Origin: Heptranchias perlo
Taxonomy: Eukaryota
Reading direction: 5' to 3'
NCBI RefSeq assembly: GCF_035084215.1
Contig: NC_090348.1
Span: 41,106,001-41,170,000 of the forward strand
DNA length: 64,000 nucleotides
Shown in pieces: positions 8,711-62,557 of the stretch. The number at the start of each line of letters is the position of its first letter. The first letter of the stretch is position 1. The position numbers and the translations under genes were made by a program. The notes beneath the pieces were generated by a model, which was not told the origin of the DNA, did not search any database, and worked only from the letters and a program-made list of their open reading frames with translations.

Positions 8711-11527
8711 AAACTGCTGAGAAAAATTACATTTACAGAAGAACATTCAGGTCAAGTTCTGAAAACAACCGTTGTACGTGCAAGTATTCCTTGTGAAAGT
8801 GACCAATTACGGACAGCCCCTCACATAACCCTTTGAAAGATAGAATGCAGGATCCATATGGCCAGTCAGGCCAGGCTGATTCACTACTAGAACTAGATAG
8901 GATAGGCAATAGTTTGGGGATTTGTTAATAAAAATTAATTCCTTGTGCTGTTTGCTTTACCCACTGGCAAATTGAGGTTTCAAAAAAAAATTAACACCAT
9001 CCTTCCATAACATCACGAGAAAATTAAATGGAACACGTGTTATGCAGCAGTTAAAAGAATGAGGTAAGATCAACTTGATCAATAGAAAAACCATTAATGA
9101 AACCACTGATTCTGGAATTAACTTGCATTGAACTATCCTACCCTCTAACTGGCACAATCATTCCTATAGGTTTAAACAATAGCATTAAAAGTGTGCTTCA
9201 TTTTGGACGAACTTTGTAGAGTTTTTTTTTAAGAACATGATCAGCCCTGCACCATCAGGCTGCAGAGAGAAATTGAGCTTTATATGCCAGATGATGAAAT
9301 TTTAGTAAGTACATTTAACAGGTCTAACACACATTAAGACTTAGCCAAGTAATTAATAAGCATATCTCTGGTATACAAGCTTACTCATGCGTTGTAACTA
9401 CAAGAGTTCTTTTTGCTTTGGTTTTTCTCCTTGGACTTCCTCCCATAGTTCCTGACGCTCAGGACAGGTGATCAGTGCTGCTCTTAGCCCGTTACCAAAA
9501 ACATGTGGCCATTGCTGCCTTTAGCCAGTTGCCAGGAAGCATGCTACATGAGCCAGATGGACGCTCTCCTGCCCAACATCACTCGCCTACCCACCACACA
9601 GAGACAGCCGCCTAGCAGCTAAGACATGACAGAATGGAGGGATGCAGGCTCACAGTGCACTGAAGCCCTATGTCAACACATCAGGTTTTCAACAGAGCTG
9701 TCTGCATTTTAATGTATTGCTCAAAACAAACCAGAAAAGATGCAGGAGGCAATTCAGTGACACCGCTGACTGGAGTATTTATAAGCACTTGCGTTCTCTT
9801 CCCAAGGCACCACTGCCTTGATCAAAGTACAAATGGTCAGTCAACAACAAAAGTAGCTGGAACACCACCAGGAGAAACTGAAGTTGGTGAAAGGCGGTTG
9901 GGCTCAAAATGATGGAAAGTCTCTGCATTGGCTCCTGTAACGCCACGATGAGAAAAAACAAAGTTTACCCTCCGCCGGTGCAAGTATTGCATTACTCTGA
10001 AGTTATTTTTCTTGTATATGTAACGGCACCATGTTGCTATTCCTTCACCCAACAAGCATGTCAATCACACCATCCATCACTTGCTTGCACTTAATGAAGC
10101 TGAGCTGCTTTCATTGGTCCCAGGCTAAGCAATATACTTTAAATCATGCATTTTTTTTTAAAACAAGAGTTTACCACCACAAAATGTTGATCTAGTGATG
10201 CTGCTCACGATTAATACAAATCTATTTCTCTTTTTCAAGTGATCACCTTGATATATCTTTGATATTACACGTGTCAGCTTCTGGCAGCTGCGCTCTCCTG
10301 CTTTTCTAATGACGCAGGTACAAATTTATTTTAAAAATCATCTTGATTTAATGCCAGGCTCATGCTTCAGATCTGCTATTTTGCATTAGGTTTTCTGGCT
10401 GCTGGCATTTCCAACCCAGGCTATTTATCTTACTTACTACTTCAATACACTCCCACCTTTATCCTTGAGATTATGATGTAAATGAAAACCTGTTAGCAGC
10501 TGTTGGATTATCCTGTTCTCAGCTTTTTGACAGCCATTTTGCCATAGTCCCAACTGCAAAATTATACAACTGCTCCCTTGTATTTAAGCTTGTTGACATG
10601 TGCACCTGAAGACAGACTCCCTAAGCTGGCAACACAACATTTATGGTGTAATGGCCAAAAAGAAAGTTTTGAAGTAGGTCAGTCAGAAAAACATACGTGC
10701 TCTGCCTTTAAGCAGAATTTGAACGTCAACCCCTTGATATGCTCGGCCTTTGTTGAAACTTTGCCACTCCTACCAACACCATACATGCTAGGCATTTAAT
10801 GAAATGTTGCCATCCCAGTTTGTACGGAATAATTGGTGTTAAAAAAACTCAAATGACGTCATAGTAAAACATTAAAGAAAAAAAAATCCATACAATGCAG
10901 AACAACTCTCAACACCTGAAGTAAAAAAAAAGGTTTACATCCAGATGGCAAACCTGAATTAAAAATATTCTCACAAAAAGGGACATATGGCAATTTTCAA
11001 ACTTTTAGGGGGTGGGGGTGGGAGTAATGACCCTCTGCAAGTATTAGCACATTCCAGAGGACCCCCACCTTAACTTCTAGAAGACCGTCAATTTGGAAAC
11101 CAACAGGATACATGCAACGCATGGACCTGTCCTCTCAGGTGCTGACGAACCTGCTACATGTGCTCCTTTTGCTTCACATTTCAACATTTGCAGTTTTTTT
11201 TCTTATTATCTCGCGTTGATGCAAAATGCATTTTGATTAACGAAGTTTCGTTCATGCAACGAGCATCTTATTATTACTTCTCGACATTCATCCAAGTTAC
11301 AGATGGTGCTGTGGTGGGCAAGGGGCCAAAGCACCGTGAAACCAATAGAGCTTTGAGTCACCACAGAAAAACCAACCATCAACAGTTGGTCAATAGACAA
11401 TGGCTGCGCGATCCACGCGGCCACCAATATAGTTTGTGCATTGGTCTATGGAGGCACTCCCATCAACACTGCCGACTCAGACTCTGTCCTATGTTTGTGT
11501 CATGGATGAATATAGTTGTTGCATGAA

Positions 11528-11682
11528 TTAAATGCAAGGTACAGCCCACAGGGAGGGGGGGAATAAAAACACAAAACCAAAACATATGGATGGCGATCCA
11601 GCGCAAGAATGGATCGCCATCCATATGTTTTGGTTTTGTGTTTTTATTCCCCCCCTCCCTGTGGGCTGTACCTTGCATTTAA
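11528..11682. repeat. Perfect palindrome: 73-bp arms and 9-nt loop, starting and ending in TTAA
   Basis: 11528-11600 is the exact reverse complement of 11610-11682, checked base by base including the G7/C7 run. The loop is GCGCAAGAA. Complementarity stops outside the TTAA. Confidence 0.98.
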
Positions 11683-12304: not shown

Positions 12305-12495
12305 GTACTGAAAGTCTGAAATAAATAAAAGAAAATAAGCTGGAAATGAACAGTCGGTCTGCCGGCATCTCAAAAGGGTAAGAGACTGGTTAATGCTTCA
12401 ACAAAAAAGGTTTTCACCCAAAACATCAACCAGCCTTTTCTCCTTCAGGTGCTATTTAATCTGCTGTGCATTTTCCAGCATGTTCTGTTCTTATT
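12305..12495. mobile_element. Degenerate fold-back repeat, probably Penelope-like-element derived
   Basis: GCTGGAAATG...GCATCT on the left mirrors AGGTGC...TTTCCAGCA on the right. The same motifs occur at 22035, 43805, 51950 and 59695. Confidence 0.55.
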
Positions 12496-12654
12496 TGGAA
12501 GACATAAAATCCTTTAATATATGCAATTGAAACGCAGAGAATTTAAAATGATCATGTCGATGCTACAACACAACCCATGATTGCTAAGTCCTAATTTTAC
12601 CAGCTCCTATTCTTCAAAATACCCATCCACAATTCTTCTAACTTCTACACAACT

Positions 12655-21450: not shown

Positions 21451-22034
21451 CTCCCCACCCATCGTGCATTTCTCATTCATCATTTGCGCGATATTACTCA
21501 TTACCTGGGAGCGAGGGCCAGAGGAAAATCAGAGCCTCCTTTTTTAAAAAAAAAATCATTGAAGGAGACAAATGTAGCTGTGAAATTAAAATTCAGTCTC
21601 CAAGTTCAAAAAAAAATGGTTCCCAAGATTGAGAACTTATATGAACTGCAAAGGGAGAGGCTGCAGCAGAACAGAGGAGTATCAGAGGTGTTGCTACTGA
21701 AACCCAAGCTGTGAGACGAGGAGCTGCCACAGCAACACCTCCTGGATGGAGGCATGAATGGTGACAAAAATTGGGAGGGAATTCCCATTATAAAATGCTG
21801 GCTTGCAATGTGTGACAACAGGAAGTACATGCATACGGAAGGTTTTTAATTTCCAGTTACAACCTTGAACTAAGATGAGATGCACCATTTTAACTAGGGG
21901 TTGCCTTCAAAACAGTTTGTACGATGAGAAGTCAGTGAAAATTGTCCATGAAAACCAAAACAAATTTCAGAACAATGCCTTTTTTATTTTATAATTGTAC
22001 TTGTTAAAAAAGAAAAAAAGCTTATTTGAATATT

Positions 22035-22145
22035 GAAATAAAGACAGAAAACGCTTTGGAACTTTCATTTCAAGTTTGTGGTTATTTTCCAGCATTTTCT
22101 GTTTTTATTTCAGATTTCCAGCATCTGCAGTATTTTGCTTTTGAT
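22035..22145. mobile_element. Internally deleted fold-back (Penelope-like) repeat
   Basis: TTTCCAGCATTTTCTGTTTTTATTTCAGATTTCCAGCATCTGCAG, preceded by the mirror remnant GAAATAAAGACAGAAAACGCT. Confidence 0.65.
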
Positions 22146-23004
22146 GTAAATATTGAATGCTGGTGGACATCTGCAGAAATCGGCATGAACAGGCTTCTGA
22201 ATTGAAGCATGTCAAGAGCAAACTATTTTCTGCGACAGTTTAAATGACACGGTCAATGAAGCATCACTGCTTCATGGCCATCTCTGCTAATACCCATTCA
22301 GCTCCCTCACATGTTCAAACTCTAATTCTTCTGAACCAGTTTTAGGTCATCAGCACTCACAAACCAGCAGTTCAGAAACACAAACAGGAATTTAAAGCCG
22401 TTGGCTCTTCCTGGGAGCCCTTCTGAAAATACAGAGCATTACAGTACTCACCACTTATACCACCATCGTTTCTACCAGCCATTTGCCATTCCCATAGATG
22501 TCAGTTACAAAAGGCACCACTTAAACCAATTTAAACGCTTATTTCGGGCAAAGTCATGTTTTCAAGCAGCTGTTCAATCAGCTCTTTAATCAGCTCTTTG
22601 CACTTCATTAAGGTGCGATTATCTTGGCTACTTACGTTTGAGTCTGTTAATCAGCCCCCAGAGCAAGAGTGCCTTTGACGACAACTGAGGTTGTCAGTGC
22701 AGCGTAAAAATACTTAATGCAGAGTAAACTACAGTATAAAGCAACCTATTATGGTTTTATTGTCCACCTCATACAGCAAGAAAACTACGTTCGCACCAAC
22801 AGGCTCGATGCAACAGGTAGGAAAAGTACCAAGAAATAAACATCTTTTTTATTGTCAAAATTGTCCGTTTTCTTTTGTTCTGACACTAAGTGGTCCAAAA
22901 ACAGCAATGCTGGCGGCTTGGTAGGGTTGATGAGCTGGACAGCATTATAGTAGAACTAATAGACAGCTAATGCTACAACGGCCTTGGGTTTTTCCTGACT
23001 TTCC

Positions 23005-24390
23005 ATGAAACTTGTTGATTGGAGGGTAGCAAATGTTGTGCCTTTGTTTAAGAAGGGCGGCAGGGAAAAGCCTGGGAACTACAGACCAGTGAGCCTGACA
23101 TCTGTAGTGGGTAAGTTGTTAGAGGGTATTCTGAGGGACAGGATCTACAGGCATTTGGAGAGGCAGGGACTAATTAGGAACAGTCAGCATGGTTTTGTGA
23201 GAGGAAAATCATGTCTCACGAATTTGATTGAGTTTTTTGAAGGGGTAACCAAGAAGATAGATGAGGGCTGTGCAGTAGACGTGGTCTACATGGACTTCAG
23301 CAAAGCATTTGACAAGGTACCGCATGGTAGGTTGTTACATAAGGTTAAATCTCATGGGATCCAAGGTGAGGTAGCCAATTGGATACAAAATTGGCTTGAC
23401 GACAGAAGACAGAGGGTGGTTGTCGAGGGTTGTTTTTCAAACTGGATGCCTGTGTCCAGCGGTGTGCCTCAGGGATCGGTGCTGGGTCCGCTGTTATTTG
23501 TTATTTATATTAATGATTTGGATGAGAATTTAGGAGGCATGGTTAGTAAGTTTGCAGATGACACCAAGATTGGTGGCATTGTGGACAGTGAAGAAGGTTA
23601 TCTAGGATTGCAACGGGATCTTGATAAATTGGGCCAGTGGGCCGATGAATGGCAGATGGAGTTTAATTTAGATAAATGTGAGGTGATGCATTTTGGTAGA
23701 TCGAATCGGGCCAGGACCTACTCCGTTAATGGTAGGGCGTTGGGGAGAGTTATAGAACAAAGAGATCTAGGAGTACAGATTCATAGCTCCTTGAAAGTGG
23801 AGTCACAGGTGGATAGGGTGGTGAAGAAGGCATTCAGCATGCTTGGTTTCATTGGTCAGAACATTGAATGCAGGAGTTGGGATGTCTTGTTGAAGTTGTA
23901 CAGGGCATTGGTGAGGCCACACTTGGAGTACTGTGTACAGTTCTGGTCACCCTATTATAGAAAGGATATTATTAAACTAGAAAGAGTGCAGAAAAGATTT
24001 ACTAGGATGCTACCGGGACTTGATGGTTTGACTTACAGGGAGAGGTTAGACAGACTGGGACTTTATTCCCTGGAGAGTAGGAGGTTAAGGGGTGATCTTA
24101 TAGAAGTCTATAAAATAATGAGGGGCATAGATAAGGTCGATAGTCAAAATCTTTTCCCAAAGGTAGGGGAGTCTATAACGAGGGGGCACAGATTTAAGGT
24201 GAGAGGGGAGAGATACAAAAGGATCCAGAGGGGCAATTTTTTCACTCAAAGGGTGGTGAGTGTCTGGAACGAGCTGCCAGAGGCAGTAGTAGAGGCGGGT
24301 ACAATTTTGTCTTTTAAAAAGCATTTGGACAGTTACATGGGGAAGATGGGTATCGAGGGATATGGGCCAAGTGCAGGCAATTGGGACTAG
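23005..24390 (+). CDS. CR1 ORF2 reverse transcriptase region (461 aa, no endonuclease domain; ATG comes from flanking DNA)
   Basis: Motifs NYRPVSLTS, QHGF, DFSKAFDKV, GVPQGSVLGP, FADD, DLGV and RPHLEY, with no stops or frameshifts. Expression is not shown. Confidence 0.85.
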   Translation: MKLVDWRVANVVPLFKKGGREKPGNYRPVSLTSVVGKLLEGILRDRIYRHLERQGLIRNSQHGFVRGKSCLTNLIEFFEGVTKKIDEGCAVDVVYMDFSKAFDKVPHGRLLHKVKSHGIQGEVANWIQNWLDDRRQRVVVEGCFSNWMPVSSGVPQGSVLGPLLFVIYINDLDENLGGMVSKFADDTKIGGIVDSEEGYLGLQRDLDKLGQWADEWQMEFNLDKCEVMHFGRSNRARTYSVNGRALGRVIEQRDLGVQIHSSLKVESQVDRVVKKAFSMLGFIGQNIECRSWDVLLKLYRALVRPHLEYCVQFWSPYYRKDIIKLERVQKRFTRMLPGLDGLTYRERLDRLGLYSLESRRLRGDLIEVYKIMRGIDKVDSQNLFPKVGESITRGHRFKVRGERYKRIQRGNFFTQRVVSVWNELPEAVVEAGTILSFKKHLDSYMGKMGIEGYGPSAGNWD

Positions 24391-24486
24391 CTTAGTGGTA
24401 TAAACTGGGCGACATGGACATGTTGGGCCGAAGGGCCTGTTTCCATGTTGTAACTTCTATGATTCTATGATTCTATGATTCTATGA
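23017..24486 (+). mobile_element. Young 5'-truncated CR1 LINE with intact RT domain, 3' stem-loop and (TTCTATGA)4 tail
   Basis: Uninterrupted RT frame; 3' UTR hairpin ACATGG...GGCCGAAGGGCC...CCATGT; four 8-nt tail repeats at 24455-24486. Confidence 0.97.
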
Positions 24487-26639
24487 AGTGAGGCTAATGG
24501 TATAATGTTGCCTCAATTGCCTTTGTGCCACTGGTGTGACCCAGCCACTATTGGGTGCACTAGTTTTCTCCGAATTGTACACCACTGTAACTGTGCAAGT
24601 TCCATACCGTCTTCATGTGTCGTGTATATATCTATACATCGTCCTGTGACCTCCAGAGAACCCACACAGACACACACCCCCACACCATCCCTAACCAATC
24701 CAAAGGGTCAGACGCACGTCAGTAAGTACAAGACAAGCCCAATGCAGCTCAAAACATTGTACTGGCCGCCAGCTATTTTTGATGGAGCTGCCCTGCTTTA
24801 TTTCACTAACTGACCCCCACCCTGGGCACATCTCAATATAGAGGAGTCAGACGGACTCTCGGCAATTCTACATTCAGATTTCTGGATCACTGCAACGCCA
24901 CTATAACCACAAACTTGAAATGAAAGCTCCAAGCGTAAACTGTGGCATCAGACTGTACATTGGCTGATGCAAACCCCACTCCCCCTACAGTTGGGCTCAG
25001 CAATTCCTTTAAGCCAAACTCCCGAGAGAGATCACTAGCACTCATCTTCTAAAGCAAATGAATTTTGAAATGTAACATAAGTACATGGGGCGGGGCCAGA
25101 AACAATGAGGACATTAATGTTCTTATACATCTTCAGATTGAGATTTGCAAAGGGTCTCAACAACGAGGCTACGTTTAAATTATAGCTCCTTACAGGAAAT
25201 GTTTGTATTTTAGAATTAGCTAAGCTCTTCGGGAAATTGCACTCCAATCAGTCCTTTAGGCATTAACCAGGCCCCACTGAGTAAGAGTAAGTGCACAAGT
25301 CAAAATCTGTTTGTTACATCGGATTCAGAGACTTCTTTTTTAAAAAAAAAACTGGACTTTGAATTCCACAATCGCATCCATATTCTGGGCCTTGATGATG
25401 ACTCCAGTGATCTGGTTTGTACTGCATATCTTTCCATTCTCCATCTCTACTGATTTTAAAAAAAAAGGGAGAAAGTTCCATAATGTTGCTATTTTGGGCT
25501 GCAGTGTTACTGGGCTATCTGTATAATTGATTTACTTCCACATTCACAGCCACGTCAAACCACTCAAAACTTCCTATTCTTCACATTATCAGTGCTTTTG
25601 TTTCTTGTTTTCGCTATGAAATTTTGGTTAAGACTGGTCAATTATGCACCATTTCCAACGGCAACTTGTGAGTACCAAAACATTTCAAAGTAATGAATCC
25701 GACAGGAGTAGCACATTAGGCTTCAACACCCCGGCTTGGGTGAGGGTAGAAGGATTGCACAGAATCCATTACCACAAGGCAGCGTCTGAAACATAGTCAA
25801 TCGTGGCATTTCGAGGCACTCGAGGGGAAAAATATTTACGATACAGGAAAAAGAGCAGGGAATTGGGATTGTTGACAATATCTCAGGAGGCGGAGCTAGC
25901 AACGGCATATGGGCACCACCAGCCAAATGGGCCTCCTTCCATGCTGAAATTTTTTGCAAAGAGACATCAGCAGAGGTTGGGATTGGGCTCGGACGCGATG
26001 CCTCTCACAAACAGCCCGTCATACAGGTGCACACACATTTAGGACTGCCACTTCAGGAACTAGACAGGCCGCTGGTACTTGTACAATATCACCAGTCCAA
26101 CCTGTCTGGAGAGAAGGGGAGAAATTTGGAACAGTGGAGGAAGCGGAGAGGGAAAAAAAAAAATCGAAGTTTGGAGGAGAGAAAAAAAAAGGACAAGAAG
26201 CTACAGGCAGTTGGTTCACCACATCAAACAAACAATCTCATTGAAACTTAACAACTCTGCATTTGAAGAAATATATAATAGAAGTGTTGAGAAAAAAAAG
26301 TCACCATGCTCATCACAAAAGACCAAATCCACAGTGTTGAGCTGTCTTTATTAACCTGTATAAATCGGTTACTATTTGCACAAACAACATTTTGCCATTA
26401 AGCAATCACTCTTTAAAAACAATCAGTACCAGCACAATTTTTAAATTCAGGGGACGCCCTGAAAATACTTTTCTTTATAAAACAACCTCAGTGATTTAAC
26501 AAAAAGTGCACCCAAGGTTGACAATTTTTAATATATGCAAATTAACAGCCACTGGGTAAAATCCAGAATCCAACAATGATGCTTCTCTCAGTAGTACCTA
26601 GAGTAAAAAAAAAACTCACACCTGGGGATTATTTTTTTT

Positions 26640-42979: not shown

Positions 42980-44431
42980 AACATCGAAACATGGAATTTG
43001 ACCTAAACCAGTCCATGTTGGTGATTACCCTCCACACAAACACGTCCATCTACATCTCCACCTCAAGGTCATCTTCTCATTGTCATTGTTGGGTGACCTG
43101 CAATGCATAGTGAGCAAGGCCCCATTTCCCTTCCTATTCCTTAACTCTATATGGATTCTGTCACAACATAGCCCCCCTTGGACGTCCTTGCATTCTATGG
43201 CTGTGATAGACTCCTTTAGTCATCCTGCCACCCACCCCTCTCTCCTGAAAATGCTATAACCAGGAAAATTAAGCTTCTGGTCCTGTCTAAGCTCAAATCA
43301 AATCACTGTTGTAGCTACTATATGTTATCCCTCCATAGTTATTAATGCTTCCAATGCTCCAATTTTGTTTTGACTGCTTTGGACATTCACATGCATACCA
43401 CTCAAAGCTGACTCCAATTTTTGGAACATGGACCCTTTGTCTTTTTCCTGGTTTTCTCATTTAATTTTTTTTTTTAAATATCCCTTGCCCCTTCCACAGT
43501 ATTTATATCTCACTATCTCGTAGCCTGTTTCTTTCCCTTTCTCCCTACAGTATTTGCTCATTTATTTCAGCTAAGCCTCTGTTTTTATTACACTAGAATT
43601 ATTAATCTCGCTCAAACCTAGCACAAGCAGCACTAGAGACTGCCACCCTTGAGATTTCGTTTTCCCATCTAGCGTCCAATTGCTTTAACTCCCTCTGCAA
43701 GATCTCAAACATTCTTGCATCAGTGGTTCCTACACAGACCGCAATATTCGACTGCTCTCCCACAGTGCCCTTCAGCCTGGCACCAGAGAGGCAACAGAGT
43801 ATTCAGGAATAAAAACAGCAAATGCTGGAAAATGCAGCCTGACCTGCTGATTGTTTCTAGCATTTTCTGTTTTGGGGTTCAGATTTACAGCATCTGCAGG
43901 ATTATGCTTCTTCAAAAATAAAAATATACAGCATTCAGAACTCCTGGTCACAAATGCAAAAAATAGCCCTTACTCTAGAATCTCTCAGTACAACCAATCT
44001 CTTCTTATAGTCCATCTGCCTCATCCCCCACTTGAGTAGTTCCTTGCTCCATGGTGCCGCAATGTTGCTCAGAAACATGTTTCTCCGAGGCACCAACTGT
44101 CCACCCCCCACCTCATACTTGTCGAGCACCATGAGCCTCTTGGATAGTTCCAGTAACTCAGCTTCCTGCACCCGTGAATTCTGAATCCCTCTGCTGTCCG
44201 TGCAGACGGTCACCTATTGCTCTCCTTCTACACTATCCCCATCTCCTGAACTGCCCAGCAATGGCTCTCGGTTGACTTACGTGCTGGAAAGTACGATTCT
44301 GATGCTGCAGGGTGTGCCCAACTGCTGTTTGAGCACAATGATCCTCTGCTCCTGGGGGATCAGTTTTCTGACTCAATGCTCCTGGATACACTGGGGATCA
44401 ACAATGGCCCACGTACTGCATTCCACCCACA
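42980..44431 (-). mobile_element. Old CR1 5' region: ORF1 (esterase-like) and start of ORF2 APE domain
   Basis: Minus-strand translations RLVVLRDSRVRA (GDS-like), HVNVQSSQNKIGALEALI (NARS.RNK..EL-like) and PGYSIFRR occur in the right order, with many stops. Confidence 0.6.
43805..43910. mobile_element. Fold-back (Penelope-like) repeat nested in old CR1
   Basis: AATAAAAACAGCAAATGCTGGAAA...GCCTGACCTGCTGA...TTTCTAGCATTTTCTGTTTT. Confidence 0.65.
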
Positions 44432-45168
44432 GGCGTTGGGGAGAGTTATAGAACAAAGAGATCTAGGAGTACAGGTTCATAGCTCCTTGAAAGTGGAGTC
44501 ACAGGTGGATAGGGTGGTGAAGAGGGCATTCGGCATGCTTGGTTTCATTGGTCAGAACACTGAATGCAGGAGTTGGGATGTCTTGTTGAAGTTGTACAGG
44601 GCATTAGTAAGGCCACACTTGGAATACTGTGTACAGTTCTGGTCACCCTATTATAGAAAGGATATTATTAAACTAGAAAGAGTGCAGAAAAGATTTACTA
44701 GGATGCTACCGGGACTTGATGGTTTGACTTATAGGGAGAGGTTAGACAGACTGGGACTTTTTTCCCTGGAGAGTAGAAGGTTAAGGGGTGATCTTATAGA
44801 AGTCTATAAAATAATGAGGGGCATAGATAAGGTCGATAGTCAAAATCTTTTCCCAAAGGTAGGGGAGTCTATAACGAGGGGGCATGGATTTAAGGTGAGA
44901 GGGGAGAGATACAAAAGGGTCCAGAGGGGCAATTTTTTCACTCAAAGGGTGGTGAGTGTCTGGAACGAGCTGCCAGAGGCAGTAGTAGAGGCGGGTACAA
45001 TTTTGTCTTTTAAAAAGCATTTGGACAGTTACATGGGTAAGATGGGTATAGAGGGATATGGGCCAAGTGCAGGCAATTGGGACTAGCTTAGTGGTATAAA
45101 CTGGGCGACATGGACATGTTGGGCTGAAGGGCCTGTTTCCATGTTGTAAACTTCTATGATTCTATGAT
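44432..45168 (+). mobile_element. Young 5'-truncated CR1, near-identical to 23736-24470
   Basis: About 17 differences in ~735 bp by manual comparison; open frame to the same stop (GPSAGNWD*); (TTCTATGA)2 tail. Confidence 0.97.
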
Positions 45169-49112: not shown

Positions 49113-50285
49113 ACAGACAGTATGATAACCCAATGCACCTTCCAGTTTCCTAGGAATTACTCACCAAAAGTGTGCAAGAAAGCAAAGCATAAGAAAGAGG
49201 AACACAGATTAGATAGATGCTGGGAAGGGATATGTACAACATAAAGAGTAATTATACACAAGTAAAATTTACCAAAATTTGATGCACAGTCTGAATGTAA
49301 AGAAATTAACCCAAGATAAAAGGTCAGATGGGCGGGATTTTCCCCTCAAAGTGCCACACGGTATTATAGATCTATCACCCAGGTCCCCTCGATCCCCTAA
49401 CTGATGATACATACTGATTTCATAGAAAGCAAATGTTACTCGCTGCTGCTCATAAACTAATTATCCTACACTACAAAAAAAAACTCTTCCCAACCATTGT
49501 CTCATTCTCTTCCTCCTTCAGGCAAAGCAGCTCCAATTTATACCCAGCCACAACTATTGTGGTCACAGTGTAGGTAATGCAGTTTGGGAAGAGCAGGACT
49601 GGTGGCAACTCATGACTAGACGCCAAGAGGAAGGAAGCATTGGAAAGCCGAGAGCAAAAACTGTGTCAACTAACCTCAGTATGTTGGTTTCTAAAGGGTA
49701 AGGAAACAAAAACGATCAACCAGAATTCAAAGTTCAGGGAAAGCAGACTTAGGGCGTTGGATTTTCTTTTTAAGCTGAGGTGGGCTGCACTGTCGGAGGG
49801 AAGAGGGGGGAAAGGGGGAAGAAAGAAGACAGCCTGGCTGAATTGTTTTGCTTATGAGGACAAGCAACGCTGAGGCTAGAGAATGGAATAATTTTCCAAT
49901 TTGGAACCCACCATCAACACCGAGAAAACCCTGATGATATAGAGCACAAGCTATTGCAGAGTAATGCTCCCCGACTCTGCCCAGCAATGTACCTCAACCT
50001 GGTCTCAGAAAAGGAGCCCTGTTGCATTTCACATACCACCATTTTATTGGCCTCTGAATAAAAGCTACCAAACTGTGGGCATTTCTCTATTGTGTGTCTA
50101 CAAAGGGGGGGGGGGGGGGTCTCACTCAGAACTGTGCTAAGCCTTCCCTCAGTCATTCATACTTAAAACCTTATAACAAAGATATTGCTTTCACCCCATC
50201 AATTTGAATTGCATTGGAGTTCAGGTCCCAAATGCAAACAGACAGTATGATAACCCAATGTACCTTCCAGTTTCGTAGGAATTAC
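49113..50285 (+). repeat. 48-bp direct repeat pair (49113-49160 and 50238-50285), 46/48 identical
   Basis: ACAGACAGTATGATAACCCAATG(C/T)ACCTTCCAGTTTC(C/G)TAGGAATTAC occurs twice, 1125 bp apart. Confidence 0.92.
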
Positions 50286-51949: not shown

Positions 51950-52155
51950 AAAAATTAAAAAGACAAGGTTAGAAATATCCGGCAGCTCAAGCAACATCTG
52001 AAAGAAAGGAAGAGGACGGGTTAGCATTTTGGGTGTGACCTTTCATTAGAATCAAGTTGTGACGCAGGATGCCAACAGGAAGGTTATCCTTTCTTTCAGG
52101 TGCTGACAGATCTGATACTCCCAGCATGTCCTGTTCAATTTCAGATTTCCAGTCC
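51950..52155. mobile_element. Degenerate fold-back (Penelope-like) repeat
   Basis: CATCTGAAAGAAAGGA mirrors TCCTTTCTTTCAGGTG; ends TTTCAGATTTCCAG. Confidence 0.55.
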
Positions 52156-52948: not shown

Positions 52949-53199
52949 TTTTAAAGGCAGTTTTAAAAATTGTTAGGAAGATATAAGACCCATAAAATCC
53001 TCAATTTCATTTGCCCTTTTCCGACAGGTTATGAAGCGCCACCAGACTCAAGACCAATGTAAATAAATGCAGGAATTGACGCTTTATAAAGAATGAATTA
53101 AAAAGGAAAAAAGACACTACAGTCAAAAGTCCCATCCAGCCCACAACAATAGTTAACCTCACTGAAAAATTACTCATTTTTGTCGGGGGGGGGGGGGGG

Positions 53200-56100
53200 G
53201 AAATAAATCCCCCCCCTCGTTCCCTCAACTATTCTACTGTTATCGACATGAAATGTGACGGTGTATTTGCGACAGTAGCGAGTATTAATCCCTCGCTGCG
53301 AGGAGGATTATTAACTTAACCCCCACCCCCGGGCTCTTTCCTGTGCTAGATAAATATATATAATCTTTTTTAAAACCGGGAAAGTTGACTTCACTGGAAA
53401 TTCCCAGGTGCCGCCCAGTCACTTGTGTCATTCCCTGTAATGTGATGCAGTCACAGAAAGTGACGAGAATACATCAGGATCATTACGGGAAAGAGTGAGG
53501 ATGAGTCAAAAAAAAAATTGCCCCGACCCACCTCTCCCATCACCAAATTCCCCAGAAAGGGGCAACTAACGGGAACGCGCTTTCCCCCCCCGGGGGGCTA
53601 CCAAGCAATAAACTCTTATTTTTTTTGCGCGTTAACGCCGTCTCATAAATGCAAGTGCACTGCCTGCAGTAACTTGTTGCAATAAGATAGATACTGAGCC
53701 TCGACACTTGTCCTGAAGTGTTTTTTTTTAAATCATCTTTTTCTTAAAAAGTAGCGTGCACGCGCTTCCGCCGCGCGTGTCCGCCTCCCCTTCCTCGGGA
53801 ACGGGGCTGGTTGTAAACAAATCCCATGAGCAATTTTTTTTTTGAGCAACGGGAATTTTTAAAGAAAAATCACAAAAACTAATTGAGGATAGGGAGGGGA
53901 ATCGAACATTTTTTAAAGAAAACAACCAGAAGCAATCAAATTGGACTTAACCAACAAAAAACTTGCATTTACATATTTAAAGTCGACAACAGCTTTAAAA
54001 TTTAAATATAATACTTATTCTAAAAAAGGCAAATTCAGAATGATCTGGGGTTTAACAGCTGCTACATTTTAGTTACAACGCAAAAAGTTAGATAGGATTA
54101 ATGCAACATTGTACACCAATGTTACCCTATAAATAACTTATTAATTAGCCTGTTTTATTTTTTTAAAGTTACCTGCTCTGAGTGTTTTACCTGTATTCCC
54201 TCGGGGTTGCCTTTTACTGTAATGCACTTCCAAGAAAACGCCATAGGATGTTATGAAGAAATAAGTAATACGTTGCTGCGTCACAGGGAGATGGAAACAC
54301 AAGTCACATCCGACAGGAGCAGAGAGAGGAAAAAGCGCTCTCCAGAAGTTGGTTACTTTACAGAGACATTACCTTCAATGCAATATTATAAAGAGGTGAC
54401 AAGCAAAATGCTACATTGATAGGTTTTAAAAAGGCATTTTTCTTGCAGCTCTTGAAGGGGAAAAAGAAATCCTCCTTAAAATCTCTCGCAAACGCAGCAG
54501 CATCATCCTCCTATCTGAGCGCGTGCACGAGAGAGAGAGGCGGGGGCGCGCGTCTGCAGTTGCGCATCATTCGAGAGCGCGCTCCCGCCACTGTTTATTC
54601 CCCCTCCTCCTCCTCCTTCCCGCTGCTTCTACTGTTGCATATTAAAACAAAAATTCATCTTGCATTTAGGGTTGTAATTGCAAAAAAAAATAAAATTGGT
54701 TGTGCAGGATTGAACGTGCACGAAAAAAAAACTAAACATCGTCACAAGCGCGTGCCCGTGCGCGCTCCCGCAAGCCTCCAACGCGCGTCAGGTGCTGCTC
54801 AATGTACCTTGTCTGACCATCGTGACGTCTTTATTATTTCTGTTTACATCCTGTTCTATGGATGTCAGGAAGGGTGGGGAAGGTAAATATACATTTAATG
54901 CAAGTTAGTTAATACAAAAAAAGAGAGAGAGAGAGAGACACTAAAGAGAAGTTACTAACTTAATGAATATCAGAAGGAATTAATAACAAACAAAACAAAA
55001 AAATTTGGAAGGGGGGGGGGGGAAAGAGGCAGGGGAGGGGAATTGGGCTAATTCTTGTATTTGGTATCTGGACCATGTCAACACAGCGTCAGCAGCATGT
55101 TTACCTCAACTCTGAATTTTATCTGCGCAACATTAGCTGGAATGCGGACATGAAGTTAAACACACACACTAACAGCAGCCATGTGGCAATGAACCAGCTT
55201 TTAGGAACAAAACATGACACAATATAGATTTAAATATATATTTTCTCTATCATTCCAAGAAGAAAAACAGAAGAGAGAGAGAGTTGTAATTAATTAACAT
55301 CACTCTGTCCTTCATTTGTTTCTATCTATCCAGAAGAGGATGACCCGGCGTTTTTAAAATTACAACACTGACCTAGACTCAGAACCGATAAGGATACATT
55401 TTATTTTCTATTAAAAGTAAGGCTGAATTTTAAAACCGGTTGTTTCATTGCTATTAAAAACAAAATCACTTACGTTTCGAGGTGTTCAGTTCTGCGACCT
55501 TTCGACCTTTTTTTTCCCTTCCCCTCAAATGCAGATTTAAATTTTAAAAAAATTCTCCCTGACAAGCCACGTCCTTCATTATGTGCAGATTGGGTAATTT
55601 TTTTTTGGAAAAAAAAATTAATATTGACATCGGGTTAAGCATTGCTGCGGAGGAGCATGGTGAACCATCCAGCCCACACAGACTTTGTAGATGTGAAAAT
55701 AAACAAAACAGGAGGAGGACTTTTAGTGCACACTGTGAAAGTAACTGAGCCTCCAAGCTCTTGGTGTGGGCAGTTTGCAGTGAATTGCGTCGCTTCAACG
55801 TGTTTCTACCCCACGGGGAGGAGGGGGGGGGGTGTTTTTTTTTTGTTGCTTGTGTTGTTTCGTAACTCGATTATATCATGTCCATCATCATGTGACATAC
55901 TGAGGCCTCGATGGAAACTTAGGGGGGAAGGAGCCACGTGATAGAGCTGCAATCCCATCATCACAACACTCTGCTCGGCTATAAAAGCAAGATTGTTTCT
56001 TCGCTGGATCATAGCGTTTTATTTTTTTTTGTGTGTGTGTGATCAGCGCCAAAGCAATTAACCTATTCTCGTCCGACAGAATAACAGTTGCACTGGAAGC

Positions 56101-56400
56101 CGAGCATGTCTGCCCCGTGCACCGCGGAGGAAGTTTATGTGTTTTATTTGTTTTTCAATGTAAAGTGTCTCGCTAGCGTTTTTAAGTGGTGCTGTTTTTT
56201 TTAAGCGAGGGAGCATTTACCTTAAAGGGGGACTGACACGCACTGTATTATACACACACGCGTGCATATATATTCAGCGCCTGTTGAGAAGTTGCCCTCC
56301 AAGTGTCCTGCGGTGATCGCTTGTTAACTTAGTCCTGAGTGCCAAGTTATTTAAAACAAAATGAAATCGGACCTCACGCAGCGTTAAAAAAAAATCAAAT
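53200..56400. promoter_or_regulatory. CpG-enriched promoter-like region with no recognisable transposons
   Basis: Dense CG/GCGC runs (53575-53805, 54485-54830) in a CpG-depleted background; GC-box-like GGCGGGGGCG, TGACGT (54823) and several TGTTTAC sites; no recognisable repeats ~52160-57500 apart from simple repeats. Confidence 0.65.
54173..54520 (-). other. Putative first (non-coding) exon of an unidentified minus-strand gene
   Basis: Two minus-strand donors, CAG|GTAAAA (exon end 54191) and CAG|GTAACT (54173), lie just downstream of the CpG core. The start site is a guess. Confidence 0.4.
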
Positions 56401-57509
56401 AACAATTATCCCATCGCAACAGCATCAACAAACAACAGGTTTGTTTACTGCCAGTGATACATAAATTGGAAAACAATATAATTTTCTTAAAAGTCTCTCC
56501 AGAGATAAGACAAATATAGCACCGGATGTTATTTAAATAACACATGGTGTTAGATGTAACAATACCAAACAGATCAAAACAACAGACGTTAAATACCACT
56601 GAGTCATAAAAGAAAAATACGCCAATAAAGCGTCAACTGACTTGTTGCCCAGAGGAAGAATATCACGTGTGATTCAATGTGCCTGTCAGTTAAACACTGT
56701 TCTGATAAAGCTGAATAACAACAACAAAAGTCAGGACCTTCCAGTAATTTCCGAGACATGCTGTATAACACCTCAAGTGAAAGAGAAAGGTTGTGCAGGG
56801 CACGGGGTTCGTTTAAATAGGAGACGGGGAGGTAAAGGAGATGAGACCTTTCAGAGATATATTTGTCCATCTATAATACTGGTTAAATTGCCATGTTGTT
56901 GCACAAAGGGTGAAGTGGGGGATAATTGGTCTGGAGCATACAGTGCTTATTTTTATATAATGCTTTGATTTTATATTATCATTATCCATAATTAAATAGC
57001 AGCACTTACAGCAAATTTGGGAAGCAGAGTGGAATTGGCTGGAGCAGAAGCGTTTCTCTGCAGCTCAGGCTATGGAACTGGGAGATGCAAAAACCGAGGT
57101 GCTACAGGGCCACCACTGGCAGGAGGGTGTAATTACAGCATGACAAATTACATAGGCAATTCCCATCATAAATGTGGACACTGGAACTTATAATGCAGAA
57201 ATTGACACAGAAGTGTGACAAAGATGTATCAATAGGAAGCAAGGTTTTGTAGACAGAAAGTACATGCAGACATAAGATCTTAAATATGTTATAGATTTTA
57301 CAAGCTTTTTGTACAGCATGCACTTTCTATGTGTCACACTTGTAACACTTTCCCTGTTACACTTGCCCGCCTCACACTTTGATTGCATTCTTATTATAAA
57401 ACATTGCGTCTTCGGACTCACCATGAGCAACACCAGAGGAGATCTGCTAGTAAGATAATAAATAGTATGAAAAATATAAATCTAGAAAATTACATCAAAT
57501 TAACCCAAG

Positions 57510-59544: not shown

Positions 59545-59970
59545 GAGTGAGATTGACAATTTAATGCCAATTAGAGCAGTTTGGTGTTTTTTCCCCCACA
59601 GCCACCGCGAAATGGATTCAGACTGCCCAAAGTCATTTCATATTGTGTCATCGGATAAAGGAGATTTTCATCCCGCCAGGGATGAGAAAATTGGTACAAA
59701 TCTAAAATAAGCACAGTAAATACAGGAAATACAGAGCATCTGAATAGGGAAAAGATAGGTTAATGCATTGGGCGCACATTTTTCATCAGAGCTTCATCCA
59801 ATTCTTATGAATGACCTCCATCTGAAATATTATTTTTTCTTTTTTGATGTTGCCAGATCTGCTATGTTTTGCTAGCATTTTCTGTTACTTTATTTTATTA
59901 ATTAAGGCTGGAGTTCAACCCAAGTCTTGAAGTTGAAAGACCAGTGGCTAACTCAATGCACCACTTGTTC
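59545..59970 (-). mobile_element. LF-SINE-like element split by a fold-back insertion
   Basis: Minus-strand head GGTCTTTCAACTTCAAGACTTGGGTTGAACTCCAGCC (59906-59942) and body ATGAAATGACTTTGGGCAGTCTGAATCC...CTAATTGGCA (59550-59645). Confidence 0.5.
59695..59895. mobile_element. Degenerate fold-back (Penelope-like) repeat
   Basis: ACAGTAAATACAGGAAAT..GCATCTG on the left mirrors GATGTTGCC..CTAGCATTTTCTGT on the right; central TTCATCAG. Confidence 0.5.
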
Positions 59971-60023: not shown

Positions 60024-60992
60024 ATTAGGAGCTCACTACAGATTTGGCCCCTAAAGAGATGCCATCACGGAATACCCAGAATTCACTCTGAAGTTTAAAA
60101 TTCTTCATCACACCCTCTGCTCCAATCTTTGCTTCTTCTCACTTCCGTCTTTCTATTTCCCCAATTTCAATTCCAGACAAGTCTTTTACAGCACGCTTGG
60201 CTATAAAATCGGATATAGCTAACAAGCTGCCTAGATTTGGATCATTTTTCAATGGGTTGTTTGGGAGTGTTAGAAACTCATAAATTGCAGCCAAAAGTCT
60301 GTCTTTTAAACTGAAGTCTTGTTTTTCCCACTTCAATTCTGCATCTTAATGAACTGGAGCTATGGTTTTTCATTTAGTTATAGTTCGTAATGATTTTCTT
60401 TCATCATCAACAAAGCAAACAGAACTCAAGCTTTGATTCCAATCCCTGTTCTGCTCCCTGTCCAGTTCTGGAATTGGCCAAAGAATAACACGTGGTGACT
60501 CCTTTGGATGTGATGACAGTATCAGGAGAAACTTCTTTACCCAAAGAGTGGTAAGAATGTAGAACTCGCTACCACAAGGAATAGTTGAGGCAAATAGCAT
60601 AGATGCATCTAAGGGGAAACTAGATAAACACATGAGGGAGAAAGGAAAAGAAGGATATGCTGATAGGGTTCGATGAAAAGCGGTGGGAGGAGGCTCGTGT
60701 GGAGCATAGACCAGTTGGGCTGAATGGCCTCTTTCTGTGCTGTCGACTTGATGTAACTATGTAACTCTATGTATCATCATGTCAAAGATCATTTGAGTGG
60801 TACAAATCATATGTTTAATAAAATGAAGATCGTAATGTAAAAATACTGAAAAGATTTTATCATTGAGGAGTGGTTTCGCTCAGTGTCGACTTTCCCCAGT
60901 GGCCAACATGCCACCGTTCCAGTGGAGATTTTCAAGGCTTCGTTGCTATTTCAGGAACTTCCTAGGGGCCAAATCTGTAGTGAGCTCCTAAT
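60024..60992. repeat. Perfect 30-bp inverted repeats (60024-60053 and 60963-60992)
   Basis: ATTAGGAGCTCACTACAGATTTGGCCCCTA and its exact reverse complement TAGGGGCCAAATCTGTAGTGAGCTCCTAAT. Confidence 0.9.
60522..60773 (+). mobile_element. CR1 3' end (same subfamily as 31540-32266)
   Basis: GTTGAGGCAAATAGCATAGATGCAT..AAGGGGAAACTAGATAAACACATGAGGGAG is shared with 32071-32128. Confidence 0.87.
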
Positions 60993-61365
60993 GAACAGCA
61001 ACAGAGCTTTCAGGTTATCATCATGCTCCTTCCCTGCCTCCAACACTAGCAGTTCCTTTTGCATATCTACTTGACAACCTGCCCCCCTCTTCAACCTGCA
61101 ATGTGATTTCCCAAACTCCTGTCCTTAAGTTCAAACTTTAGTAACAATCTACCTTACGCTGTCAGTTCAGAAATAGGCCACAATGAGTCCAGCTCCAATA
61201 GATTCCCACGAGTCCCATTTGCTGCCATCCAAGAGATGATAAAAGTAAATGGAAGTCAGGCACTGCGACTTAAATTCCCCACTGGAACTGCACACATTGT
61301 ACATGACTACTTTACAAAACCCCACAGTAGTATCAATCAACCGCATGCAAGGCAATGCTTGCAGT

Positions 61366-61680
61366 CCAGAACAAGGGGTCATAATCTTAAAATTAGAGCT
61401 AGGCCATTCAGGGGTGAAGTTAGAAAGCATTTCTTCACACAAAGGGGAGTGGAAATCTGGAACTCTCACTCCCAAAAAGCTGTTGAGGCTGGGGGTCAAT
61501 TGAAAATGTCAAAACTGAGACTAATAGGTTTTTATTAGACAAGGGTATTAAGGGATACGGAACCAAGGCGGATAGATGGAGTTAAGATACAGATCAGCCA
61601 TAATCTAATTGAATGGCGAAACAGGCTCGAGCGGCTGAATGGCCTACTCCTGTTCCTATGTTCCTTGGTTCCTATGTTCT
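61366..61680 (+). mobile_element. CR1 3' end
   Basis: SRTRGHNLKIRARPFRGEVRKHFFTQR; (TTCCTATG)-type tail. Confidence 0.88.
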
Positions 61681-61712: not shown

Positions 61713-62557
61713 ACATAGGAACATAGGAACGTAGGTACAGGAGCAGGCCACTCGAGCCTGTTCTGCCCTTCATTGAGATCATGGTTGATCTGTATCCTAA
61801 CTCCATCCACCCGCCTTGGCTCCATACCCCTTAATACACTTGGCTAGCAAAAATCTAGCGATCTTATATTTGAAATTATTAATTGAACCAGCATCTATTG
61901 CTTTTTGTGGGTGAGAGTTCCATGCTTCTACCACCCTTTGCGTGAAGAAATGTTGACTAACTTCCCTCCCAAATGGTCTGGCTCTGATTTTAAGATTATG
62001 TCCCCTTGTCCTAGACTCCCCCACCAGCGGAAAAAGTTTCTCTCTATCCACAATATCTATTCCTTTCAAAATCCTAAAAACCTCAATCAAATCACCCCTT
62101 AACCGTCCATGGGAATACAAACCTAGTTTATGTAACCACTGCTCATAAATTAACCCTTGGAGCCCTGGTACATTCTGGTGATTCTGTGCTGCACTCCTTC
62201 CAAGGCCAATATATCCTTTCTAAGGTGCAGTGCCTAGAACTGTACACAGTACTCCAGATGTGGTTTAACCATACATATAAAACCATGTATAGTTGTAGCA
62301 AAACTTTTTCCCTTTTATATTCTAGCCCTCTACTTATAAAGGCTAACAATCCATTAGCCTTTCTGATTATTTTTTGTACCTGACTACGACATTTTAGTGA
62401 TCTGTGTACATGAACCCCTAAATCTCTTTGGACCTCCACAGTTCCTAGCTTTTCACCATTTAAAAAACACTTGAATCTATCCTTTTTTGGTCCAAAATAG
62501 ATGACCTCACACTTACTTGCGTTGAAATCCATCTGCCACAGTTTTGCACTTTCACTT
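61713..62557 (-). mobile_element. CR1 3' fragment, frameshifted
   Basis: ORFs 62143..62565 (WQMDFNASKCEV, QRDLGVHV) and 61797..62120 (RLRGDLIEVF); tail ACATAGGAACATAGGAAC. Confidence 0.9.

Follow-up and report, generated by a model that had tools for sequence, protein, structure and literature searches.

Origin of a perfect 155-bp palindrome bounded by TTAA in the genome of Heptranchias perlo: fold-back duplication or miniature transposon?

In the stretch of 64,000 nucleotides of Heptranchias perlo DNA analyzed here (the window), a palindrome of 155 bp (positions 11528-11682) raises the question of how a long inverted repeat without any mismatch, ending on TTAA at both sides, could have arisen. 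The original prediction headlined it as a very young mini-transposon made up entirely of terminal inverted repeats (TIRs), and rightly named a template-switch fold-back and an assembly artefact as further candidate origins, with appropriate caveats. Its description of the structure was matched exactly: the two 73-nt arms, at 11528-11600 and 11610-11682, are reverse complements with 100% identity, separated by a 9-nt loop at 11601-11609 and carrying TTAA at each outer end. Pairing ends at the TTAA, the first three bases beyond the palindrome being non-complementary. The features of the locus are as follows.

11528-11600, + strand: left arm, 73 bp, starting with TTAA, A-rich, with a run of seven G
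11601-11609, no strand: loop (spacer), 9 nt unpaired, with one CpG
11610-11682, - strand: right arm, perfectly reverse-complementary to the left one, with TTAA at its end
11528-11531, no strand: left TTAA, candidate target-site duplication (TSD) or mere end of the arm
11679-11682, no strand: right TTAA, candidate TSD or putative rejoining microhomology of a fold-back

The palindrome is confirmed to be a real feature of the sequence and far beyond chance. Perfect inverted repeats with arms of at least 11 bp and loops of up to 50 nt number five in the window, with a second-longest arm of 12 bp, and order-2 Markov simulation of the window, run 30 times, gave a longest arm of 10-14 bp each time. 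Folding of the palindrome as DNA gave a z value of -23, with none of 200 shuffles folding equally well, and a transcript of it would form a long double-stranded RNA stem. Rfam gave no match at the gathering threshold anywhere in the window. The 25 matches obtained by E-value, all sub-gathering and mostly to miRNA-precursor models, are often equal on both strands and hence represent generic hairpin matches rather than a known microRNA or structured RNA family.

Symmetry aside, the arm scores as ordinary, host-like DNA by local Markov models, its likelihood lying at the 58th-79th percentile of host 73-mers (orders 2-5). The + strand of the window shows a steady skew of A over T and of C over G, and the left arm, with an AT skew of +0.55, follows this trend; among background 73-mers outside masked LINEs (overlapping windows), values of at least +0.55 were found in 21 of 1744 and values of -0.55 or below in 2 of 1744. 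If the palindrome originated by fold-back, the left arm is probably the native template and the right arm newly synthesized, as judged from this strand skew, which can tell the native arm but does not separate fold-back from transposon. The palindrome is present in one copy in the 64-kb window, the best other blastn match comprising 32 bp of low-complexity host DNA (E = 0.011).

The window has a GC content of about 41% and is rich in LINE remnants. The + strand skew and a CpG-rich, promoter-like segment at 53000-56500, where minus-strand splice donors may lie near 54174 and 54373, suggest that the palindrome may be located in a long intron of a minus-strand gene; a crude splice scan for this host gene gave seven unvalidated candidates, none within 3 kb of the palindrome. 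CpG-rich, too, is the left flank (11077-11527), where 11001-11500 with 15 CpG ranks among the top 20 500-bp windows. This flank contains short internal repeats, and a 24-nt inverted pair of 75% identity (11246-11269 and 11509-11532) adjoins the palindrome. A decayed tandem duplication that would begin in the left flank and extend into the left arm, with periods of about 83 and 185 bp, was considered and rejected, as a nominal p of 0.028 compares with 0.116 for a shuffled arm and rises to 0.63 after correction over offsets, and TRF finds no such array.

Among the LINEs are two young CR1 copies at 22999-24487, with an 8-bp tandem tail at 24455-24486, and at 44432-45168. The ORF at 22999-24387 encodes an uninterrupted CR1 reverse transcriptase of 463 aa. 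Between 23736-24471 and 44432-45168, 17 of 737 columns differ (97.7% identical), with four exact runs of at least 73 bp. Considering the 120 listed of 7547 matches to the reverse transcriptase, identity among animals given by name is highest for elasmobranchs (Hypanus 69%, Chiloscyllium 64%), birds and turtles mostly show 44-56%, and some bacterially labelled or unlabelled proteins from short contigs reach 69-79%. A shark or ray is accordingly the probable host. The bacterially labelled matches, such as those assigned to Proteus mirabilis (79%) and Klebsiella pneumoniae (69%) on contigs of 1.6-1.7 kb, probably reflect vertebrate DNA contaminating bacterial records. A pair of old CR1 3' fragments at 61363-61635 and 61747-62017 is inverted relative to each other and forms an imperfect hairpin of about 270 bp at about 80%. 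Besides, a second perfect inverted pair of 30 bp is found at 60024-60053 and 60963-60992, 909 bp apart. Between its arms lie a CR1 3' fragment and, on the minus strand at 60028-60345, a 68+37-aa stretch whose composition is protein-like, ranking in the top 2-3% of window ORFs; the 68-aa stretch has no match in Pfam, Atlas or a homologue search, the last being weak evidence. The contention that most other repeats of the window are decayed has thus to be qualified, as neither the CR1 pair nor the 30-bp perfect inverted pair is.

As to age, zero differences in 73 bp bound the divergence of the arms at up to 4.0% (95%). With a dS of 0.061-0.111 separating the whale shark from the zebra shark over about 50 My, as given in the available text of PMC13100897, this bound translates into an upper age of 18-33 My; a mutation rate of 7 × 10^-10 per base per generation is given for the epaulette shark (PMC10587355). 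Perfect arms are not proof of youth, since the CR1 pair with its 17 differences still has 118 of 665 73-column stretches free of mismatches. Moreover, arm-to-arm correction in hairpins is a known process (PMC5453318) which would loosen the age bound further. Hence, the palindrome is not necessarily young, and the predicted extreme youth is not supported.

The best reading of the locus, held with about even confidence, is a single-locus inverted duplication formed by fold-back synthesis in non-coding, probably intronic, elasmobranch DNA. In such an event, a break or a stalled fork would provide a 3' end just beyond the loop, which would pair with a handful of complementary bases lying about 9 nt back on its own strand or, alternatively, switch to the opposite strand. 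A polymerase would then copy the left arm in reverse over about 70 nt, and the new end, with TTAA or part of it, would re-anneal to the original template at this short match, upon which normal synthesis would resume. The TTAA would accordingly be a rejoining microhomology and no transposase footprint, and the product would have neither mobility nor a required function.

This reading is favored by the combination of perfect arms, short spacer and unique flanks, which is the product described for snap-back synthesis-dependent microhomology-mediated end joining (SD-MMEJ) (PMC5728401), and the same anatomy is generated by four-point template switches (PMC5453318). Foldback priming at short inverted repeats has been described in yeast (PMC10622511). 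The locus shows the perfect inverted repeat, the short spacer and the local template of such products, arranged as 73 + 9 + 73. In apes, the length copied by template switching has a median of 12 nt and a maximum of 128 nt, according to the part of PMC7954356 available, so that 73 bp is long yet in range. Fold-back is also in line with the single copy in the window, the host-like arm, the A over T skew of the left arm on the + strand and the deviation from the end rules of piggyBac and Kolobok elements. The scarcity of DNA transposons in sharks argues in the same direction: in the grey reef shark, their genomic share is 1.58% (PMC12498223, with a supplement lacking superfamily detail), and the accessible text on the whale shark genome gives piggyBac, Sola and Crypton as not detected (PMC8455134; for piggyBac also PMC5381603).

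Local evidence comes from another site, which belongs to a family of decayed inverted repeats. The members of this family in the window are listed here.

12312-12512, 43800-43913, 51958-52149, 59696-59895 and 22034-22138: inverted-repeat family, decayed imperfect copies of about 100-200 bp
near 11127-11202: inverted-repeat family, weak partial copy
22034-22110, + strand: inverted-repeat family copy with replaced interior, a comparator and not part of the palindrome

In the comparator, positions 22062-22085 are a 24-bp exact inverted copy of 24903-24926, from 2.8 kb away, the similarity extending to 35 bp at 94% (source 24903-24936), and one junction shows an imperfect microhomology of about 10 nt. 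This is an apparent templated repair insertion into a collapsed repeat copy, with a mechanism suggested by these sequence traces. Being separate from the palindrome, inverted, locally templated and bordered by microhomology at one side, this insertion favors the fold-back reading of the palindrome, as does the presence of a further unexplained duplication in the window, a direct pair of 48 bp (49113-49160 and 50238-50285) which is 96% identical, 1.1 kb apart and found nowhere else in the window.

Several points stand against fold-back. The TTAA end must then be due to chance or microhomology, and by chance it is expected in only about 0.7% of cases (5.3% for any self-complementary 4-mer). The length of 73 bp is far in the tail of template-switch lengths (PMC7954356, available text) and exceeds the reach of about 30 bp given for SD-MMEJ (PMC5728401). 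The test for continuity between left flank and arm failed after search correction (p = 0.63). A single copy in 64 kb says little on a low-copy family, and host-like composition is also compatible with a miniature inverted-repeat transposable element (MITE). Finally, the 8-mer ATGAATTA occurs three times in the window, and two of these straddle the left end of the palindrome and that of the pair at 60024-60992, which are the longest perfect inverted pairs. This coincidence is unaccounted for by fold-back but, with a post hoc p of about 0.0035 from two cases with unrelated arms, it is to be taken as a lead only.

The main alternative, which we consider possible though on the doubtful side, is a non-autonomous all-TIR DNA transposon, cut and pasted by a DDE transposase that would act in trans from another locus. 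Such a MITE would be 147 bp long with TIRs of 69 bp, with TTAA or TA as its insertion site or else placed between TT and AA with no duplication. It would explain why symmetry stops exactly on TTAA at both sides, where a random duplication would rarely end as this motif represents 475 of about 64,000 4-mers in the window (0.74%), and TTAA is the target of piggyBac (PMC5381638) and Kolobok (PMC9587614). In its size and its make-up of TIRs throughout, the palindrome is similar to tiny elements such as MADE1, which is named among the Mariner/Tc1 elements (PMC5753468), and tiny TIR elements are often the sole trace of a transposon (PMC9025800). Being short and non-coding, with terminal inverted repeats and a frame across it that has no homologue, the palindrome has the anatomy of a generic MITE. 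The 8-mer shared by the left ends of the palindrome and the 60024-60992 pair could mean a common target preference.

On the other hand, the TTAA parse results in AT..AT ends, with neither the 5'-C of piggyBac nor the 5'-RR of Kolobok, so that the predicted misfit to both superfamilies is borne out by the available descriptions (PMC5381638 and PMC9587614). Nor does the TTAA testify to transposition by itself: as had been cautioned, it is self-complementary and may belong to the arms, and the possible parses (TSD TTAA with ATGC..GCAT, TSD TA with AATG..CATT and TSD AT with GCAA..TTGC) all stem from the symmetry itself, none being independent proof of a target-site duplication. The arms are low-complexity and host-like, and the palindrome has one copy in 64 kb, compared with five or more for another inverted-repeat family in the window. 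With this single copy, and with transposase domains in none of 191 window ORFs of at least 70 aa, the headline of an all-TIR mini-transposon is unproven. The TIRs of the 60024-60992 pair have no sequence in common with the palindrome arms.

An interrupted coding element was considered as well, as a 126-aa left ORF and a 111-aa right ORF come into the same frame if 151 bp are removed, but a stop lies between them and the ORFs are not recognizably coding. Three comparable pairs are native in the window, the composition of the 126-aa ORF is non-coding, and neither flanking ORF has a match in Pfam, the right one having none in PDB or Atlas either. The ORF pair was therefore rejected as evidence.

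Weighing these points by rough judgement and not by computation, the TTAA end favors a transposon some tens-fold, the non-canonical ends undo most of this, and a small net advantage remains. More specifically, an undescribed elasmobranch DNA-transposon family with ATGC ends, inserting at TTAA within an extended target (ATGAATT context, as at 60024-60992), appears unlikely. Such an element in sharks was not described in the literature searched, which covered few subscription journals and no repeat databases. If true, the family would require a TTAA-targeting transposase, so far uncatalogued, to be active in a LINE-dominated lineage; if multi-copy, the palindrome would represent a TTAA transposon with non-canonical ends where DNA transposons are scarce, with a transposase worth finding.

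Quite improbable is a retroelement by-product, in which a short cDNA would have been self-primed into a hairpin before insertion, a mechanism resembling that behind the inverted pseudo-LTR ends seen in Penelope-like elements. Several decayed inverted-repeat elements of about 100-200 bp in the window (12312-12512, 43800-43913, 51958-52149 and 59696-59895) are in line with this, and their family may represent Penelope-like ends, presumably common in sharks. The arm matches the end of this family over A-rich stretches (14 of 15 bases and 16 of 17), albeit not significantly (E values of 0.44-1.1). The repeats listed for the whale shark genome include Penelope (PMC8455134). However, a profile built from three copies of the inverted-repeat family gave no match on the palindrome at E up to 10, and the latter shows neither a hammerhead-core motif nor a poly(A) tail, while Rfam gave no match at gathering in the window.

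Less probable again is a sequencing or assembly artefact, that is, a fold-back chimeric read or an amplification chimera entering the consensus. The zero mismatches between the arms would suit this explanation, and no independent sequence carries the palindrome in the collections searched, none of which contains eukaryotic genomic DNA. In contrast, the window is without N, the 463-aa CR1 ORF is uninterrupted and the two 97.7%-identical CR1 copies were kept apart, all of which indicates a good assembly. Furthermore, read-level fold-backs usually extend to the read end rather than regain unique sequence after 73 bp.

A foreign or vector origin has no support, as left arm plus loop gave only partial matches to plasmids and phages (covering no more than 41% of the query, with a best E of 0.7), and a 20-nt terminal stretch has no exact match in GTDB genomes. 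Nor did predicted proteins reveal further copies: the 73-aa frame across the palindrome (one of three frames) has no match among 1.84 billion protein representatives and no candidate in a second protein collection, with exact ORF look-ups finding 0 of 6.

Overall, we place fold-back slightly ahead of the MITE, with an order between these two which is not secure, and give the artefact a low rank. If fold-back is correct, the palindrome would be another case of a known mutational process, notable for its length and its persistence in a slowly evolving genome, and shark genomes might serve as an archive of templated repair events.

Compared with known systems, the anatomy resembles an all-TIR mariner MITE of the MADE1 type, nearly all palindromic with a tiny spacer and with a formally possible TA-duplication parse, although the ends obtained by that parse, AATG..CATT, presumably differ from mariner/Tc1 ends. 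Non-autonomous piggyBac elements likewise have TTAA at both sides, but the first base inside TTAA is here A instead of the conserved C, and piggyBac TIRs average 14 bp (PMC5381638). Non-autonomous Kolobok elements also share the TTAA on both sides and differ by 5'-RR..YY-3' ends (PMC9587614), where the palindrome has AT..AT. Crypton was rejected, as it has no TIRs but terminal direct repeats of 4-6 bp (PMC3212892), whereas the palindrome is all inverted repeat and only its 4-bp TTAA would fit. Snap-back SD-MMEJ and polymerase-theta insertions, as far as described in the available text of PMC5728401, share the perfect inverted repeat, the short loop and the microhomology joint to the flank; in the fly assay, repeats lie within about 30 bp of the break, while the arm here is 73 bp. 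In comparison with four-point template switches, the palindrome would be a tail event, and the published events are defined against an orthologue (PMC7954356); what it shares with them is the formation of perfect local inverted repeats and hairpins in the vertebrate germline, with a lengthening of the locus in 65% (PMC5453318, PMC7954356).
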